A stretch of DNA of 64,000 nucleotides from a virus, in the IMG/VR virus record IMGVR_UViG_3300033146_002242, positions 1-64,000 of that record; one strand, 5' to 3'. The first letter of the stretch is position 1. Each line of letters begins with the position of its first letter. This document shows positions 52,140 through 64,000 of the stretch, in pieces. The notes beneath the pieces were generated by a model. It saw only the letters and a program-made list of their open reading frames with translations, had not been told where the DNA came from and did not search any database. The translations under genes were made by a program, and so were the position numbers.

Positions 52140-52820
52140 ATGGACGATACAAGAATTTTAATTACAAATGAATATTATCCAAAAGGATTAAATGATGTGC
52201 AAGTGCAAAAACATTATAAGAAATATCAAAAAGAAATTTTATTAGAAGTACAACGAAGAAAAGTTGCTCTTGTAATCTGTCCAGATACAAATAATTTAGT
52301 TTGGTTAAGGAATATTAAAAATAAACCTATTTATTTAAAGAATAGGAGAGATTTTCAAAATATAATTCATGAAAGAGTTTTATCAATTTTTCCTGAAATT
52401 CAACAGTATGAAAAGAAATTAGTTGTTGATATTGATTGTACTAATATTAATAATGCAAAAAAAGTAGCAAAATTATTATATAATATATTTACAAAGTCTG
52501 GATATATTACTGATGTAAAAATATTTTTTACTGGACAAACATCTTTTCATTTACATTTATTTTTACCTAATAAAACAAATATTGAGAGAGGTAAAGAATT
52601 AGTTGATGGGTTAATTAGGAGAGATGCATTTGCTCCAAAATTAATGACAATCAATCAAAGAAGGCCCAAAGATGAATTCCCAAATATAGATTTTTCAACT
52701 TTTAAAGAAAGATCAATTTATATTTGTCCATATTCATTATCAAAATTTGGGTTAATTGCGGGAGAAGTAAAAATAAATGAAATAGATTCATTTAATATAC
52801 AACATTATAAAGTTAAATAG
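52140..52820 (+). CDS. AEP primase-polymerase (LigD polymerase-domain-like)
   Basis: VVDIDC (DxD), FTGQTSFHLHL, IDF..ICPYSLS. Confidence 0.8.
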   Translation: MDDTRILITNEYYPKGLNDVQVQKHYKKYQKEILLEVQRRKVALVICPDTNNLVWLRNIKNKPIYLKNRRDFQNIIHERVLSIFPEIQQYEKKLVVDIDCTNINNAKKVAKLLYNIFTKSGYITDVKIFFTGQTSFHLHLFLPNKTNIERGKELVDGLIRRDAFAPKLMTINQRRPKDEFPNIDFSTFKERSIYICPYSLSKFGLIAGEVKINEIDSFNIQHYKVK

Positions 52821-53393
52821 TTTATTCACTAAATAAGAGTGAGGCGGGCCTCGGCTAAGCAGAATAAATATTATATATATTTGCTCACTAAATAAGTGAG
52901 ATATTGTTGTGTTGTTTGGATAAATATTATATATGTTTGCTCACTTATTTAGTGAGACTGGATTTTTCCCTATCATCAGAATATTAATTAGATAAAAACA
53001 TATTTGCTCATTAAATAAATGAGATATAACCTGGCCGTTATTTTAATTAAATATTATGTATTTGCTCACTAAATAAGTGAGAGATTATGTTCTTTTGATT
53101 TAGGTATTAAAGTATTTTGAATAATATATGTTTGCTCATTAAATAAATGAGACAGGGCGTAAGAAGGTAAAAATAAATGAAATAGATTCATTTATAATAT
53201 ACAACATTATAAAGTTAAATAGTTTGTTCACTAAATAAGTGAAATGAGATTATTTTGTTTTTTATTAGATTATTAATCAAATAAAAACATGTTTGCTTAC
53301 TAAACAAGTGAGATGGGGATAGAGAGTTTGGACGTAAATCAGGTTTTTAAAATAAAATATATGTTTGCTCATTAAATACAATAAAAATGAGAA
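52820..53393 (+). CRISPR. Degenerate type V-like CRISPR array, 9 repeats
   Basis: Core TGTTTGCTCACTAAATAAGTGAGAC-like repeats ending at 52845, 52902, 52958, 53025, 53083, 53153, 53250, 53314 and 53393; 6-bp 3' hairpin plus 2-nt tail; non-identical spacers. Confidence 0.75.
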
Positions 53394-53484: not shown

Positions 53485-54015
53485 ATGAAAGCTAATATTG
53501 AAAAAGAAAAACTTTTTAAAAAGTTTATAGATAATGGAGAAATTTGGGCTGATAAATATGGTAATATTTATAAGAAAAATGGAACTTGTAAATATCATTT
53601 AAATAATACTGGTTATTATAGATTATCATATAAATCAATAACTATTTTTGTGCATAGGTTGGTTTGGATTTATTTCAAAGGATTGATATATGATGATAAG
53701 CTACAAATTAATCATATTGATGGGGATAAATTAAATAATACTTTGGAAAATTTAGAAATTGTTGATAATAAAACTAATACAAAACATGCTATACTAATGG
53801 GTTTACGAACACCCATATCAGAAAAAACAAAACAATATTTTTCTGAAAAGATAAGGGGGTGCAAAAATATAAATGCAAAATTTACACAATCCGATGTTAT
53901 TTTATATAGGTATTTATATAAAATGGGCAAAATAAATATAAAAACAATTTCTGAAAAATACGATATAACACAACGAAGTGTAAAAAATATGTTGAGTGGA
54001 AAAACATATAATTAA
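53485..54015 (+). CDS. Free-standing HNH homing endonuclease with C-terminal HTH
   Basis: [30 protein letters not shown]. Confidence 0.88.
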
Positions 54016-54022
54016 GTTATAT

Positions 54023-54382
54023 GCCCGGATGGCGGAATAGGTAGACGCAAGGGACTTGACTCGTAAATAAATTGAGCGGCATATTTGAAAAAATATGTTT
54101 GAATCGGGTGAATTCAGGGGAACCTTCTTAATTTTATTTAGAATTAAATGGCAATCCTGAGCCAAGACATCAACGCTTTGATGGAAGGTGCAGAGACTAG
54201 ATGGTGAGGAAAGATACGTTTCTCGTAAAACATCATAAGCGCCCGACACCTAAGGATTTTATTTTAATCTATGGTGATGATATAGTCCAGACCACAAACA
54301 TTGTAAAATGGCAATGAAAATTGTAGTGGTACGAAAATCCCTCGTTCGTAAGAACGTGCCGGTTCGATTCCGGCTCCGGGCA
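54023..54382 (+). tRNA. trnL: tRNA-Leu(UAA) interrupted by a group I intron
   Basis: Exons 54023-54057 and 54334-54382 rebuild the cloverleaf with AGGGA-CTTAAAA-TCCCT and a long variable arm; AACA-TATAAT-TA motif at 54003-54014. Confidence 0.92.
54058..54333 (+). mobile_element. Group I intron (IC3, trnL-type), 276 nt, no ORF
   Basis: GGCAATCCTGAGCC, GTGCAGAGACTAGATGG and ATATAGTCC core motifs; 5' exon ends in U, intron ends in G; inserted between U34 and A35. Confidence 0.9.
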
Positions 54383-54407
54383 TCAATTTAATTTAAAAGG
54401 AGGATGA

Positions 54408-54638: not shown

Positions 54639-54649
54639 GATTTAAAAGA

Positions 54650-55080
54650 ATCGACAAAAACTTTTCGTTGTGGTAAATTGTAGTTCGCGAACACCACAAC
54701 ATAGGTGGGTAGATTGCACCTCTCCACCAAAAGTTACAAAACGATTGCCATTCTCGGCCAAGAATGGAAAAAGGTATTATTCGTTTATTGCTCGGAATGA
54801 ATAATATGCTTCGGTGAAGGCATCGGAGAATATAAAAAGAATTAAATAGCTTTGAAAATCAGGATTAACAAATATTGATACTCTCAGATTGCGAAGCCTC
54901 AGAGCTCTTAGATGAGCAGCCGGAGGATAGGCTGAGAGTTGGAGTCGTCGATACAGGGAGTCCAGAGAATACTGTCAAGTCTTAAGGCTTCGGTAGCAGT
55001 ATTTGATGACGGACCCGGTGCAGTGTAGAAGCTAGTCTGGTAACAGAAGGCAAGGCCACCGAAAGGCGCATGGCCCATGC
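54650..55080 (+). ncRNA. Large structured ncRNA candidate containing repeat module copy 1 (54881-55051)
   Basis: Series of hairpins (GTTGTGGT/ACCACAAC, CCATTCT/AGAATGG, TATTATTC/GAATAATA) then a module duplicated at 55946. Confidence 0.6.
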
Positions 55081-55378
55081 CTCGGATTTGCTTGCGGGGC
55101 TTTTTATCCTAAGGAGCGAAATTATGTTATATGAGTGTAATACCGGACTTAACTGTTCTGAGTGTAGAGGGTGTGCTACGCAACTTGAAGTTTGTTCGGA
55201 CTTTATCTCCCTTGAATACCTTTCAGAAGAGTGTACGCACAGAAATCTAGAAATGGAGTTGGAAGTGCCTATAACCAGAGAAAAAACCCCGAGAATATCT
55301 TAGCTACTTGTTAGTTTTGTGGGGCGTAGGGCAAGTTAACTCACGATGTTTTTGAAAAATTGAATAAGGAGTTAGACC

Positions 55379-59483: not shown

Positions 59484-59556
59484 GCCGGGTTAGCTCAATT
59501 GGCAGAGCAGTTGATTTGTAATCAACAGGTTGTGGGTTCGATTCCCATGCTCGGCT
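59484..59556 (+). tRNA. trnT: tRNA-Thr(UGU)
   Basis: Cloverleaf, GTTGA-TTTGTAA-TCAAC, TTCGATT loop. Confidence 0.93.
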
Positions 59557-59579
59557 TTCAATTTAACGAGGAGTTGAAG

Positions 59580-59891
59580 ATGGATGAAACTTTAAAAAAA
59601 ATTTATGGTATGATTCCAAGATTGCCACAAAGACAAGATTCATTAGCAGCACAATTTGCTGATTTAAAAATATTTGCAAATTCAATGGGAATGTATGATG
59701 CTGCTGATGCAATATCTCAATGGATTGTTAATATGCCTAAATTAAAATTTGGGTGTTATTGTGATTTGGAAGAAGGGCATAAACCTGATGAATGTGTGAT
59801 TAATTTGGGTAAAAAATCCAATTGTATATATGCAAAAAATATTGAACGCCCCGAACAATGTGAGTATTGGAGACCTATATCTAATGAGTAA
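59580..59891 (+). CDS. Hypothetical Cys-rich protein
   Basis: GAGGAG RBS before ATG 59580. Confidence 0.6.
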   Translation: MDETLKKIYGMIPRLPQRQDSLAAQFADLKIFANSMGMYDAADAISQWIVNMPKLKFGCYCDLEEGHKPDECVINLGKKSNCIYAKNIERPEQCEYWRPISNE

Positions 59892-60192
59892 TTGGGTATT
59901 TATAATTAAAGTTTGTATTTTATGTCAATTAGTAGTATTTTTTATATGTATGCAAATAAGTAAATATGAGGGGTATCCACCATCAGTTTGGAATGTTGCG
60001 GAATTAAAAACTAATATTATTATCTCAATTATTTTTCCAATTGGGATAGTATTTATTATATATTGGTCTTTAAATATAATTGGTGATATTGTTTCAGACA
60101 AAATAGAATACATAAAATCTAAATTGCGAATACATAGCAAATGGCAATATATAATTGATAATATATGGCCAAAGTTAACAAAAAAATTATAG
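59884..60192 (+). CDS. Small membrane protein (paralogue of 61492..61710)
   Basis: KY.GYP..W...E..IFPIG motif shared. Confidence 0.6.
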   Translation: MSNWVFIIKVCILCQLVVFFICMQISKYEGYPPSVWNVAELKTNIIISIIFPIGIVFIIYWSLNIIGDIVSDKIEYIKSKLRIHSKWQYIIDNIWPKLTKKL

Positions 60193-60201
60193 GAGTGATT
60201 A

Positions 60202-60525
60202 GTGGCAGATGAAATTTTGGATAATGATTATATATTAGAATTGAAATTATTATCTAGAGTGAGAAAGCGGTGTTTTTTAGATCCAGGGTTTCTCACGAAA
60301 GTAATTCAAGCGGGAGTAGCTGGTATCCAAGAATATGCGGATACACAATCTCGCCGGGCTGCTGACATGGAAACATTCGCGTCAGCTATGGCCTTTCTTC
60401 AAAAACAAGAAAGATTATCACCAAAATTAAAAAAACAAATGAATGATTTAGCTTTAGCTAAACTAGAAAAATGGATGGGCAAAACATCTCTTAGATGGGA
60501 TGATGATATAATAAAAAAGGAGTGA
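60202..60525 (+). CDS. Hypothetical protein
   Basis: AGGAG RBS, GTG start. Confidence 0.6.
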   Translation: MADEILDNDYILELKLLSRVRKRCFLDPGFLTKVIQAGVAGIQEYADTQSRRAADMETFASAMAFLQKQERLSPKLKKQMNDLALAKLEKWMGKTSLRWDDDIIKKE

Positions 60526-60713
60526 TATTATGGATAAATCCCTTAAAAATAAAAATGCTTGGGGTAAATTTTTTGAGCAAATGAAAAAAGAAGAAAATAT
60601 AGAAATAACTGTTGATTCTAAAAAACATATGCGGCATATTGAAAAATCATATGAAAAAACTAATCAAGCATATTTACACGCTAGACATATGGTGGTTAAA
60701 TAAAGGATGTAAA

Positions 60714-60977
60714 ATGGAATGGATTGATGTAAAATCAAAATTGCCTATGGAAGAATTAAAAGGTCAAAAAGTTATTGATCGTTATATGGTTACTGTTTAT
60801 CCAAAAGATATGGATCCTGTTGAAGGTCCAAGAGTATTGATTTTATGGTTTTCAGCAGAAAATATGGAATTTTCAACTGAACCTGGTGGGTTTAAATATG
60901 AAAAAATGCACGATCATTTTGTATCACATTGGGCAGAATTACCGTGTCCAGCTAAATTAAATAATGAAAAAAATTAG
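60714..60977 (+). CDS. DUF551-like phage protein
   Basis: MEWIDVKSKLP..VSHWAELP. Confidence 0.7.
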   Translation: MEWIDVKSKLPMEELKGQKVIDRYMVTVYPKDMDPVEGPRVLILWFSAENMEFSTEPGGFKYEKMHDHFVSHWAELPCPAKLNNEKN

Positions 60978-61374
60978 AAGAAAAATTAAAAGATTAGATT
61001 TAGAAAATTGGCAAAAAATGGTATGTGAAATAAATGATAATGATTATGTAGGAATGAAAGAAATAACACCTATAATAAATAAAAATGGATGTTATTTAGA
61101 GGAAAATAAGTGTTGGTTTGAATATAGTGGCAGAGCATTTACATATAACAAGGAGGATTTTTTATACACATTGAAAATTCTATCGATGCCAAATTTTAGT
61201 GAATTACAAAAAAAATCATTAGAAGATTTTATAAAATATAATAAAAAAATTGCAAGTAAACATCAAAAAGAAATGTTATATATGATGAAACAAGAGGAAG
61301 ATTTGAAAAAAGCTATTAGAGATATAAAAAAAATAAAATTCAAAATAAAAAAGATAAAAAAGATGAAAAAATAA
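60964..61374 (+). CDS. Hypothetical Lys-rich protein
   Basis: 136-aa ORF. Confidence 0.55.
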   Translation: MKKIRRKIKRLDLENWQKMVCEINDNDYVGMKEITPIINKNGCYLEENKCWFEYSGRAFTYNKEDFLYTLKILSMPNFSELQKKSLEDFIKYNKKIASKHQKEMLYMMKQEEDLKKAIRDIKKIKFKIKKIKKMKK

Positions 61375-61389
61375 ATTAAATTGTAATAT

Positions 61390-61462
61390 GGGTCATTAGC
61401 TCAGTTGGTAGAGCAACTGACTTTTAATCAGTAGGTCCGGAGTTCGATTCTCCGATGACCCA
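61390..61462 (+). tRNA. trnK: tRNA-Lys(UUU)
   Basis: Cloverleaf, ACTGA-CTTTTAA-TCAGT. Confidence 0.93.
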
Positions 61463-61491
61463 TCATTTATTTATAAAAAGAGAGGTGTTTT

Positions 61492-61710
61492 ATGAAAATA
61501 CAAATTTGGCAGATATATTTACTGGTAGTATGCATTCAATTATTAACTTTTTTAATAATAAGTCATATAGCTCGAAAATATGGTTATCCTATAAAGACGT
61601 GGACACTGAGAGAATGGTCATTCGCTATTTTAATGACTTTTATATTTCCCATAGGGTGGTTAGAAATATTCAGAGCTTCTATATGGCCATTTCTTATTAA
61701 AGAAAGATAA
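61492..61710 (+). CDS. Small membrane protein (paralogue of 59884..60192)
   Basis: RKYGYPIKTWTLREW..IFPIG. Confidence 0.6.
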   Translation: MKIQIWQIYLLVVCIQLLTFLIISHIARKYGYPIKTWTLREWSFAILMTFIFPIGWLEIFRASIWPFLIKER

Positions 61711-61734
61711 ATATTTAAAATATTAATTTAATAA

Positions 61735-61823
61735 GGAGAGGTGGTCGAGTTGGTTTAAGGCACCGGTCTTGAAAACCGGCGAGGGTTTATAGCCTTCCGT
61801 GGGTTCGAATCCCACCCTCTCCG
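61735..61823 (+). tRNA. trnS: tRNA-Ser(UGA)
   Basis: CCGGT-CTTGAAA-ACCGG, long variable arm. Confidence 0.93.
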
Positions 61824-62094
61824 TCAAAATATTAATATTATTTAAAAAGGATTAATATGATAAATACAATTTTATTAGTAATATCTATAATTGGGTTATT
61901 GGTATTAATAGTGTTGGGTATTTTATTTATAATCGAGATAAATAAAATATTTAATCGAGGTATATCAAATGAAACAATCGAAAAAATATTAGATAGAAAA
62001 CCAATTTTTTGGATACCTCCATTTAATTAAAAAATTTACATTTGCATATTAAGTAAATATGACGATTTATACTTTTTATTTATAAATTTAATGT

Positions 62095-62168
62095 GTGGGT
62101 GTGGCCTAGTCTGGTAAGGCACCTGATTTGGGATCAGGAAATCGGAGGTTCAAATCCTCTCACCCGCA
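62095..62168 (+). tRNA. trnP: tRNA-Pro(UGG)
   Basis: CCTGA-TTTGGGA-TCAGG; acceptor GTGGGTG/CACCCGC. Confidence 0.9.
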
Positions 62169-62333
62169 TCAATTTTGTAATTTTTAAATTTGCACTATGA
62201 ACAATAGTGACAAATAGCAGAGGATTGTAAATGAGGAGATACAGATTGATATATATTATCATTAGTATATATTCCATAATAATTTATAAATATTACACAT
62301 TATACTAATGTGGCGGCTGGCGTTGGATTTAAT

Positions 62334-62649: not shown

Positions 62650-64000
62650 ATGAAGAAAGTTGTTGTGAGAAAATATAGATGTTGGGAGCCTTTGAATATG
62701 GGGCAGGATGTAATTACCCAGTTGTGGTTGCAAAATCAAATGTGGAATAAATTAGTAGAGATGGAACAAAATTTATATAAGAAGTATAGAGAAGTTATGT
62801 CTACTGATACAGCAGTAGCTGAAATTGAAGAAAAATTAACTCAAAATGATACTGCTATTAAAGCATATATGGAAGAAAGAAATGAAATAAGGAAAAAACT
62901 TAAAAAGAAGAAATGTGCTGAAACAGCATATTTTGATGAACAAATTAAAGAATTATCAGCAGAATCAAAAGAGCTTCGTAAGATAGCTCGGGAAAAAAGA
63001 AAAGAAGCAAAAGAAAAAGTTAAACCTTTACTTGATGAAATCAATCAAGAAAGAAAGGAAAGAAGAAAAAAAATATATCAAAATTCGGGGTTGTTTTGGG
63101 GTAATTATAACAGAGTCATGGCATCATTTGATATCGCTGTATCAAAATCGATGAAAACTGGCAGCACTTTACGTTTTCATCGATTTGATGGAACTGGAAT
63201 TTTTAAAAATTTCTTGTCCCCCGGCCGAACAAATGATGACATGTTAAATGGAAAGTTAAGTTACTTACATTTACAGGACATTCCTGCTGAGTCATTTAAT
63301 GATTATATCGGTAGAAATAATCCATGTAAAATGGTTCTCGGTAGTCGTAGAGAAAGATCACGAAAATATGGGCTTCTCAAATTCACGATTTATCGAGGAA
63401 AAGATGAAGAAGGAAATAGAATAAATAGAATGTTAGAAATGCCAGTGCTGCTTCACCGTCCATTGCCAGATGATGAAGATTTATTAATTAAAGAAGCCGT
63501 TGTACGGCGGGAGTGTGTATCACCCGGTGAATATAGATGGTTTTTTATATTAACATATGTTGGTGGTGAATTTCAGCCAGTTCAACATGTTAATACTGGT
63601 AGTGTTGCTGGTATTAACATGGGTTGGAAAACTGTCAATAATAATACATTGCGAATTGCTACTTTGGTGTCGGATAAAGAAACAGTACATTTCATTCTAC
63701 CAGAAAAAATTATGAAAACATATGATTATTTAAATCAATTAAAATCGGAAGTCGATAGCATGATTAACCATGCTATTGCTAGAATAAAAGAGATTATGAA
63801 AGATGATGATGAACTTCCTGAATCAATGGGAGTTTATTTAACCAGAATAACAAAGGCCAAACGGCCGCGATATGATTTATTAGAGAAAATGATGTGGGTA
63901 TGGGATAAAGAATTGTCATATAAACCAGAAGAATTTTCTGAGGCAAAGGCTCATTTTGATTATCTTAATCGTGTTTTATCTGAGATGAATAATTTGAGAG
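62650..64000 (+). CDS. cas12m: Cas12m-like (type V-M/V-U1) effector with non-catalytic RuvC-I, 3'-truncated by window edge (450 codons visible)
   Basis: Manual translation from AAAGGAG/ATG 62650: QLWLQNQMWNKLVEME, long coiled coil, GLFWGNYNRV, LRFHRFDGTG, LEMPVLLHRPLPDD, VAGINMGWK; parallels recalled MmCas12m LYWATFNAV, LRHHRWDGTG, IDVPVQQHRMLPAD, IAVHLGWR. Confidence 0.8.
   Translation, partial: MKKVVVRKYRCWEPLNMGQDVITQLWLQNQMWNKLVEMEQNLYKKYREVMSTDTAVAEIEEKLTQNDTAIKAYMEERNEIRKKLKKKKCAETAYFDEQIKELSAESKELRKIAREKRKEAKEKVKPLLDEINQERKERRKKIYQNSGLFWGNYNRVMASFDIAVSKSMKTGSTLRFHRFDGTGIFKNFLSPGRTNDDMLNGKLSYLHLQDIPAESFNDYIGRNNPCKMVLGSRRERSRKYGLLKFTIYRGKDEEGNRINRMLEMPVLLHRPLPDDEDLLIKEAVVRRECVSPGEYRWFFILTYVGGEFQPVQHVNTGSVAGINMGWKTVNNNTLRIATLVSDKETVHFILPEKIMKTYDYLNQLKSEVDSMINHAIARIKEIMKDDDELPESMGVYLTRITKAKRPRYDLLEKMMWVWDKELSYKPEEFSEAKAHFDYLNRVLSEMNNLR

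Follow-up and report, generated by a model that had tools for sequence, protein, structure and literature searches.

A degenerate CRISPR-like array, conserved in structure only, and a Cas12m homologue of the nuclease-dead type in a jumbo phage

The window analyzed here covers the initial 64 kb of a virus record of 118,287 bases (IMG/VR record IMGVR_UViG_3300033146_002242), and it carries, at positions 52821-53393, nine hairpin units that all lie on the + strand and take the form TTTG-CTCACT-AAATA-AGTGAG-A-Y. Our main finding is that these units are likely to be the repeats of a small degenerate array of clustered regularly interspaced short palindromic repeats (CRISPR) of type V-M, serving the phage's own, presumably nuclease-dead Cas12m (62650-64404). 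Since the phage possesses both a Cas12m and nine hairpins that match it, it probably owns a small fixed CRISPR guide set for DNA silencing; as judged from sequence, the array is most likely functional but atypical for type V-M, with a predicted guide function. Type V-M systems are already described on plasmids, some prophages and viral metagenome contigs; the new element is a dislocated, duplication-driven array, conserved in structure only, in a jumbo phage. CheckV rates the record as 38% complete, which implies a jumbo phage genome of roughly 300 kb.

Nine hairpin units with unbroken stems

Seven units are built of TTTG, a 6-nucleotide (nt) arm, a 5-nt loop, a second 6-nt arm and A-Y, and units 1 and 9 are variants of this plan. 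Unit 1 begins one base past the stop codon of a primase-like open reading frame (ORF).

52821-53393, + strand: whole degenerate CRISPR-like array, nine hairpin units with spacers; sole cluster of the motif in the contig and in IMG/VR
52821-52845, + strand: unit 1, degenerate first repeat, TTTA-TTCACT-AAATAAG-AGTGAG-GC, with one U.G pair, a 7-nt loop and an A replacing the G before the stem
52864-52902, + strand: unit 2, 39-nt repeat, ATAAATATTATATATA-TTTG-CTCACT-AAATA-AGTGAG-AT
52920-52958, + strand: unit 3, repeat as in unit 2 with the loop inverted (TATTT) and the end AC; complementarity of 100% to the hairpins of units 2 and 5
52983-53025, + strand: unit 4, stem CTCATT/AATGAG (double change), 5' tail ATTAATTAGATAAAAACATA, a tail subtype common to unit 8
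53045-53083, + strand: unit 5, CTCACT/AGTGAG, end AG
53115-53153, + strand: unit 6, CTCATT/AATGAG, end AC
53223-53245, + strand: unit 7, TTTG-TTCACT-AAATA-AGTGAA-AT, double change at the first stem pair
53272-53314, + strand: unit 8, CTTACT/AGTGAG (U.G pair), loop AAACA
53348-53393 (hairpin portion 53364-53393), + strand: unit 9, terminal degenerate repeat, CTCATT-AAATACAATAAA-AATGAG-AA, 12-nt loop

The units follow one another at periods of 56, 67, 58, 70, 92, 69 and 72 nt, and the last repeat base varies among them (T, C, G or A, with C in three of the nine). All nine repeats that a sequence-only reading had proposed at this locus were recovered on the + strand. Units 2 to 8 match the pattern TTG-YTYAYT-N5-ARTGAR, which occurs seven times in the window against 0.93 times expected from shuffles, and none of 100 shuffles reached seven. 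The hairpin motif was found nowhere else in the 118-kb contig, including the surroundings of the cas12m gene; IMG/VR yielded 71 single chance matches and no array, and no Rfam family matched the array, CRISPR-DR models included.

Stem pairs are intact in 54 of 54 cases across the nine units, by way of double changes or of G.U pairs on the + strand. The compensatory change CTCATT/AATGAG, noticed earlier in units 4 and 6, is present there and also in unit 9, and unit 7 adds a second one, TTCACT/AGTGAA. The U.G pairs of units 1 and 8 form on the + strand only; as DNA, these two units are not palindromic. A formal covariation count over units 2 to 8 gave 100% paired stem cells, two pairs with double changes and one G.U pair, and folding returned one common hairpin for all nine units. 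The hairpin of unit 3 is indeed, as had been claimed, the exact reverse complement of those of units 2 and 5; the loop alone is inverted, while the flanks keep their orientation. That structure is better conserved than sequence is borne out both by these stems and by identities along the unit: the 23-nt scaffold is 84% alike among units, compared with 51% for the 16 nt before it (the 5' tail), and the spacers are unrelated.

Palindromic units in very AT-rich DNA, directly after a gene of the Prim-Pol type, might instead be sites acting at the DNA level, namely origin iterons, single-strand priming hairpins, or operators for a dimeric protein, and a loop inversion would be neutral for a symmetric site. 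We consider this very unlikely. Units 1 and 8 pair as + strand RNA only, one orientation is kept throughout, and the asymmetric flanks (5' TTTG, 3' A-Y) are conserved and match the Cas12m scaffold, three points that weaken the readings as iterons or as operators, the latter raised as an alternative in the sequence-only reading. Moreover, paired double changes would be needless for the recognition of half-sites, and the spacing of 56 to 92 bp is unphased.

The first 17 nt past each hairpin have a mean GC content of 38%, compared with 26% for the genome (P about 0.004), in agreement with the GC richness that had been noted at the repeat-proximal ends of spacers, while the 17 nt ahead of each TTTG are nearly pure AT, with just 0 to 3 G or C. 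TATATRTTTG has seven copies in the 118 kb, four of which fall in the array, so this tail motif is not general in the phage. A scan of a 2.1-kb region for sigma-70-type promoters revealed no enrichment (15 sites, versus 19.4 expected). A promoter before every unit was considered and found to be unsupported, both for lack of such enrichment and because the tail motif is nearly confined to the array.

Ordinary transcript elements would be another way to read such hairpins, whether as promoter plus stem-loop cassettes (the PeSL type of T4-type phages), as weak terminators or as RNA-stability hairpins: three units are flagged as terminator-like, and AT-rich TATAT tracts precede the hairpins. This explanation is highly improbable in our judgment, as a T-run is missing after most of the hairpins, the units have no ORFs between them, promoter-like sites show no enrichment and the tail motif is concentrated in the array. 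Furthermore, the hairpin is absent from the rest of the contig, unlike dispersed regulatory cassettes.

A Cas12m effector of the nuclease-dead type

62650-64404 of the contig (the window holds it up to 64000), + strand: cas12m homologue, 584 amino acids (aa), full-length homology, type V-M (formerly V-U1)

The 62650 protein, earlier put forward as a possible processor of the pre-crRNA, is a genuine type V effector: by sequence comparison it can be identified with confidence as a full-length Cas12m homologue. It matches the Cas12m of PDB entry 23vw over residues 6-579 (E 2.6e-49), and other PDB chains matched include UnCas12m4a (1.7e-27) and Cas12m2 (4e-19). The PADLOC model Cas12u1 also matches (E 3e-87), as does the Pfam TNB domain (5e-10). 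An all-library search returned 193 cluster representatives at E<=1e-30, none of them closer than homologues with 50-52% identity. The ORF is the sole TnpB/Cas12 gene of the 118-kb contig; it is intact, and all family-invariant residues are present.

Its RuvC triad, read from our alignment A1 and from the PDB alignments, consists of N323 (GINMGW), D478 (IIVDKLN) and D566/D568 (DQD), which by its residues is the nuclease-dead type already described: Cas12m variants with N-D-D bind DNA without cleaving it (Bigelyte et al., PMC11013384). H269 and R270 are also kept. They form the HR motif, which is invariant in the alignment and which in MmCas12m2 contacts the scaffold of the CRISPR RNA (crRNA) (Omura et al.; PMC10442227).

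The array had been described as type V-like and close in form to CasPhi. The first part stands, with the repeat hairpin 5' of the spacer. In place of the second we put Cas12m, to which effector and repeat format belong; no CasPhi chain appears among the PDB matches of the effector at E<=1, the best of which are all Cas12m. Like the phage repeats, those of CasPhi (Cas12j, type V-J) in huge phages have their hairpin at the 3' end, and CasPhi, too, is a compact type V effector that phages encode with neither Cas1 nor Cas2; however, the phage protein is no relative of it, and CasPhi cleaves DNA whereas the phage protein has a dead-type RuvC triad. No Cas1 or Cas2 was found in a search of the whole 118-kb contig, which extends to the contig what had been stated for the window. 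The array is not strictly an orphan, as had been thought, because an effector of the cognate type lies 9.3 kb downstream on the same strand.

Immediately past the stop codon of cas12m come a perfect 15-bp inverted repeat (CCCTGACATGAGAAT...ATTCTCATGTCAGGG) and then a T-run (contig 64411-64455). This is a probable terminator, and no array would therefore be co-transcribed downstream of cas12m. Transfer RNA genes stand on either side of cas12m, with Thr, Lys, Ser and Pro before it (window 59484-62170) and at least three tRNA-like sequences after it (contig about 65170-66320); the effector is thus inside a tRNA island of the phage.

Scaffold architecture shared with Cas12m relatives

Because the array has no relatives by sequence, we compared repeat architecture instead. 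The closest homologues of the effector (45-52% identity) reside on contigs that resemble mobile elements, and at 50-52% identity these contigs are too short to reveal arrays. The array touches the gene in the case of P0008 (locus L082, 45% identity; repeat GTTACACCCTG-CGCGAT-GGTGCGA-ATCGCG-AC) and of P0007 (L083, 48% identity; repeat GTTAAAGCCCG-CGCTCT-GGCAAGA-AGAGCG-AC). A metagenome scan provided 45 further loci, about 30 of which, from more distant relatives, have arrays or single repeats beside the gene, and in all of these ~30 the repeat ends with (T)G, a 6-bp stem, a 7-9-nt loop, the 6-bp stem again, and AC. The stems of the relatives covary strongly (five of six pairs change on both sides, with 100% of cells paired), and a CCC or GCC ahead of the G is paired with the first bases of the loop (GGG), where a fourth pair covaries. 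Their arrays lie on the strand of the gene, either upstream (L082, L083) or downstream of it. At four loci (L090, L096, L098 and L093) the repeats begin TG-CTC...GAG-AC, like the phage units.

The succession TG, 6 bp, loop, 6 bp, A is present in eight of the nine phage units, unit 1 having TA. A descriptor built from the relatives only (TG, 6-bp stem, loop, A) has 74 matches on the + strand of the 118 kb. The 600 nt of the array hold nine matches, corresponding to units 2 to 9 and to an alternative pairing at 53059, and none on the - strand; the densest other 600-nt window holds three. The phage unit, written as TTT-G-CTCACT-AAATA-AGTGAG-A-Y, also shares the layout of the MmCas12m2 crRNA, in which G(-23).A(-2) is followed by a 6-bp helix (-22..-17 with -8..-3) and C(-1) (PMC10442227).

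The known type V-M systems of MmCas12m2, GoCas12m, MsCas12m and PmCas12m (PMC10442227; PMC11013384; bioRxiv 10.64898/2026.03.26.714355) have in common with the phage a compact effector of ~600 aa, the N-D-D triad, no adaptation genes, a repeat 5' of the spacer, a mobile carrier, and a scaffold of G, 6-bp helix, loop, A and C; the shortest phage spacers have the guide length that is in use there. The phage differs from them by an array 9.3 kb from the gene, diverged compensatory repeats with two tail subtypes, irregular spacers, a 5-nt loop, a pseudoknot strand of AT only, a variable last base, and the end of a neighbour gene inside the array. The carrier here is different too, being neither plasmid nor prophage but a very AT-rich jumbo phage that encodes a multisubunit RNA polymerase of its own. 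Type V-M Cas12m systems were reportedly also studied by Wu in 2022.

The mini-arrays of L082 and L083 resemble the phage array in their N-D-D effector clade, their small size (3-4 repeats), and their placement on the same strand as the gene, either upstream of it or flanking it; they differ in having GC-rich repeats that are 96% alike, 7-nt loops, and a position adjoining the gene. At L082, mini-arrays flank P0008 on both sides (L082:17-273 and L082:2329-2488) with periods of 56-85 nt, and one block of spacer plus repeat has a duplicate with 97% identity; irregular periods and a duplicated block of this kind are further likenesses to the phage array. The L082 contig has a phage-like look, with genes for RecJ, UvrD, ligase, single-stranded DNA-binding protein and PD-(D/E)XK.

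Spacers and the search for targets

Spacer bounds were set by the shared repeat tails. This gave spacers of irregular length, about 17-33 nt, close to the 18-33 nt estimated from the sequence at first sight.

52846-52863, + strand: S1, 18 nt, GGGCCTCGGCTAAGCAGA, 61% GC
52903-52919, + strand: S2, 17 nt
52959-52982, + strand: S3
53026-53044, + strand: S4
53084-53114, + strand: S5
53154-53166, + strand: S6, runs into a copy of the end of the upstream ORF
53246-53271, + strand: S7
53315-53347, + strand: S8
from 53394, + strand: S9

The Cas12m2 heteroduplex measures 17 bp (PMC10442227), and the mature crRNA of PmCas12m has about 33 nt of repeat and about 17 nt of guide, the guide being trimmed to 17-18 nt; the lengths of S1 and S2 agree with both.

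The search for targets that the sequence-only reading had called for, covering phages, plasmids, IMG/VR and the phage's own contig, found none. Against the phage's own 118 kb, there were only chance matches with four mismatches, and these involved the AT-rich spacers; against GenBank phages and PLSDB plasmids (blastn), nothing fell under E 0.05; and exact scans of IMG/VR with S1, S8, S3 and S4 returned zero matches. A 20-mer of S8 matched once when 596 Gb of genomes were scanned; the match lies between genes, in a low-complexity repeat of a Chamaesiphon metagenome-assembled genome. We rejected this match because about one is expected by chance and because it ends at 20 nt. A listing of sequencing runs for the locus returned none.

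The sequence downstream of each hairpin might not be used as a guide at all if the units were scaffold mimics, that is, RNA anti-CRISPRs, decoys or regulators that load the Cas12m of the host or of the phage. Solitary repeat units by which Cas effectors are poisoned are indeed known from phages (review PMC11656645), conservation is limited to the protein-binding scaffold, and the presumed spacers vary in length and composition. Mimicry nevertheless seems quite unlikely to us, as it would be less economical where the matching effector is phage-encoded, and the units are chained at CRISPR-like spacing, with no promoter enrichment and with a tail motif that is not general in the phage; moreover, guide-proximal GC is enriched, and S1 and S2 have exactly the working guide length. 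The viral solitary repeat units, RNA anti-CRISPRs and viral mini-arrays of that review are, like the phage units, virus-borne repeat-derived hairpins without an adaptation module, but those elements are exact copies of host repeats that make use of host Cas proteins, whereas this phage has its own effector and mutually diverged repeats.

Growth of the array by duplication

52140-52820, + strand: upstream ORF, resembling a small phage primase of the archaeo-eukaryotic (AEP, Prim-Pol) kind; Pfam LigD_Prim-Pol 6e-4 (sub-cut-off), Atlas feature score 0.96 to viral 'primase small subunit' clusters
53167-53239, + strand: second copy, inside the array, of the final ~55 nt of the upstream ORF and of the beginning of a hairpin, duplicating 52767-52837 at 94-98% identity with a 2-nt indel

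The duplicated stretch of ORF end and hairpin is 71-76 nt long, and its copy marks a recent segmental duplication or array fusion. In addition, units 4 and 8 share one tail subtype, and units 2 and 3 another. Together with the lack of adaptation genes, the internal copy and the tail subtypes point to growth by segmental duplication or recombination-driven array fusion, rather than by Cas1-Cas2 acquisition. The view that the array is not actively acquiring spacers thus holds, and we infer that it may be what was earlier called a 'curated guide set'.

No relatives of the primase-like ORF were found in IMG/VR. Its adjacency to the array suggested a CRISPR-associated Prim-Pol role, which we dropped, as the ORF resembles an ordinary small phage primase.

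Working array or relic

Several features weigh against assigning the units to the phage's Cas12m. Between the array end at 53393 and the gene start at 62650 lie 9.3 kb, whereas in relatives that have an array the gene is at most a few hundred bases away. The loop has 5 nt, versus 7-9 in relatives; the last base varies, versus their C; and periods range from 56 to 92 nt, versus a regular ~66 nt. Mean pairwise identity of the phage repeats is 0.75 over 32 nt, versus 0.93-1.00 in well-registered arrays of relatives. The pseudoknot that relatives form between upstream CCC and loop GGG is replaced by a UUU/AAA counterpart that is weak at best: 88.6% of its cells are paired, with one G-C double change in unit 8, it is lost in unit 3, and a 5-nt loop makes it sterically doubtful. 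A covariance model (R1, from 12 repeats of one distant clade) gave no phage unit a significant score, the best being unit 6 at 5.3 bits (E 9.9); the genuine arrays of L083, L090 and L096 escape it too, which marks it as insensitive. Finally, no protospacer was found in any database searched, and only ~38% of the phage genome is in hand.

Some of these features would suit a decaying relic, a once-working Cas12m array that insertions have parted from its effector and that is now drifting without useful guides. In favor of it are a repeat identity of about 75% (93-100% in relatives), degenerate units at both ends, irregular spacing, the distance to the gene and spacer searches that gave no targets. 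We regard a relic as rather unlikely, since every one of the 54 stem pairs has stayed intact while identity in tails and spacers has fallen to about 50%, and since the double changes and the G.U pairs restricted to the + strand point to continued selection on the hairpin. Moreover, the effector ORF is intact, and the near-identical 71-nt duplication shows recent remodelling.

A possible mechanism and its implications

A working type V-M array remains the reading that we favor, and what we infer of its transcription, processing, loading, targets and biological role is as follows. The + strand of the array would be transcribed, possibly by read-through from the primase-like gene, given that the stop codon of this gene abuts unit 1 with no terminator between them. 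The hairpin, (T)G-6 bp-loop-6 bp-A-Y, would with a few upstream bases form the crRNA scaffold bound by Cas12m, which would cut upstream of the scaffold and trim the guide to about 17-18 nt, as in PmCas12m. The complex might then bind complementary DNA flanked by a protospacer-adjacent motif without cutting it, and so keep a host gene or a competing mobile element from being transcribed or replicated. Duplication, recombination and drift would alter the array itself, and selection would preserve the scaffold only.

More speculatively, it is conceivable, and we offer it as a tentative proposal, that nuclease-dead Cas12m gives a jumbo phage, probably a lytic one, a natural device for CRISPR interference, with hard-wired guides and no adaptation, that silences host genes or rival mobile elements during infection. 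Cas12m is a natural CRISPR effector that binds DNA without cutting, described so far mainly on plasmids; if the proposal is right, RNA-guided repression would serve viral takeover or competition between elements without spacer acquisition. Guides would evolve by duplication, array fusion and point mutation, the protein-binding hairpin alone staying constant, and the GC-rich guides S1, S6 and S8 would point at DNA far less AT-rich than the phage. The array would also be a natural experiment on the parts that a crRNA needs, as its 23-nt scaffold would tolerate stem swaps, loops of 5 to 12 nt, a loop inversion and any last base, a tolerance useful for engineering minimal guides. CRISPR finders demand near-identical repeats, and arrays of this kind are therefore missed.

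Between the array and the effector gene

More than ten genes and tRNAs separate the array from cas12m, both of which are on the + strand. Besides small ORFs, two conserved phage genes and a tRNA cluster, they include a tRNA-Leu gene with an intron and, between this gene and the array, a free-standing homing endonuclease gene of the HNH_3 type (53485-54015; Pfam 1.2e-12, phrog_59), which is likely to be a mobile insertion and may partly explain the separation of array and cas12m.

The tRNA-Leu(UAA) gene (54022-54395) is split in its anticodon loop by a group I intron (Rfam RF00028, 76.9 bits at 54055-54306). ARAGORN missed the gene in the raw sequence, and recognized an 87-nt tRNA-Leu(UAA) once 54057 was joined in silico to 54334, which places the intron at about 54058-54333. 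This position is the classic insertion site of cyanobacteria and plastids.

Further downstream, a non-coding stretch (54640-55110) has ~40% GC in a genome of 24% GC and folds better than its shuffles (z -2.9, none of 100 as good). No Rfam family matched it, and it may be a structured RNA of a new kind or a second intron-like element. A 680-aa protein encoded at 56313-58355 matches phrog_1735 (847 bits) and is about 47% identical to proteins of many Ackermannviridae-type phages; it has no Pfam domain, and a few records of its homologues are annotated as RNA polymerase.

The phage contig

The contig is very AT-rich (GC about 24-26%) and shows only distant kinship to any cultured phage. Its genes include pieces of a split multisubunit RNA polymerase, a family B DNA polymerase, a DnaB helicase, a T4-like portal, a ribonucleotide reductase, a RecA-like protein and many tRNAs. 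The family B DNA polymerase (contig 83238-86483) has a weak N-terminal match to the uracil-DNA-glycosylase superfamily (Pfam UDG, 4e-5, just under the cut-off).

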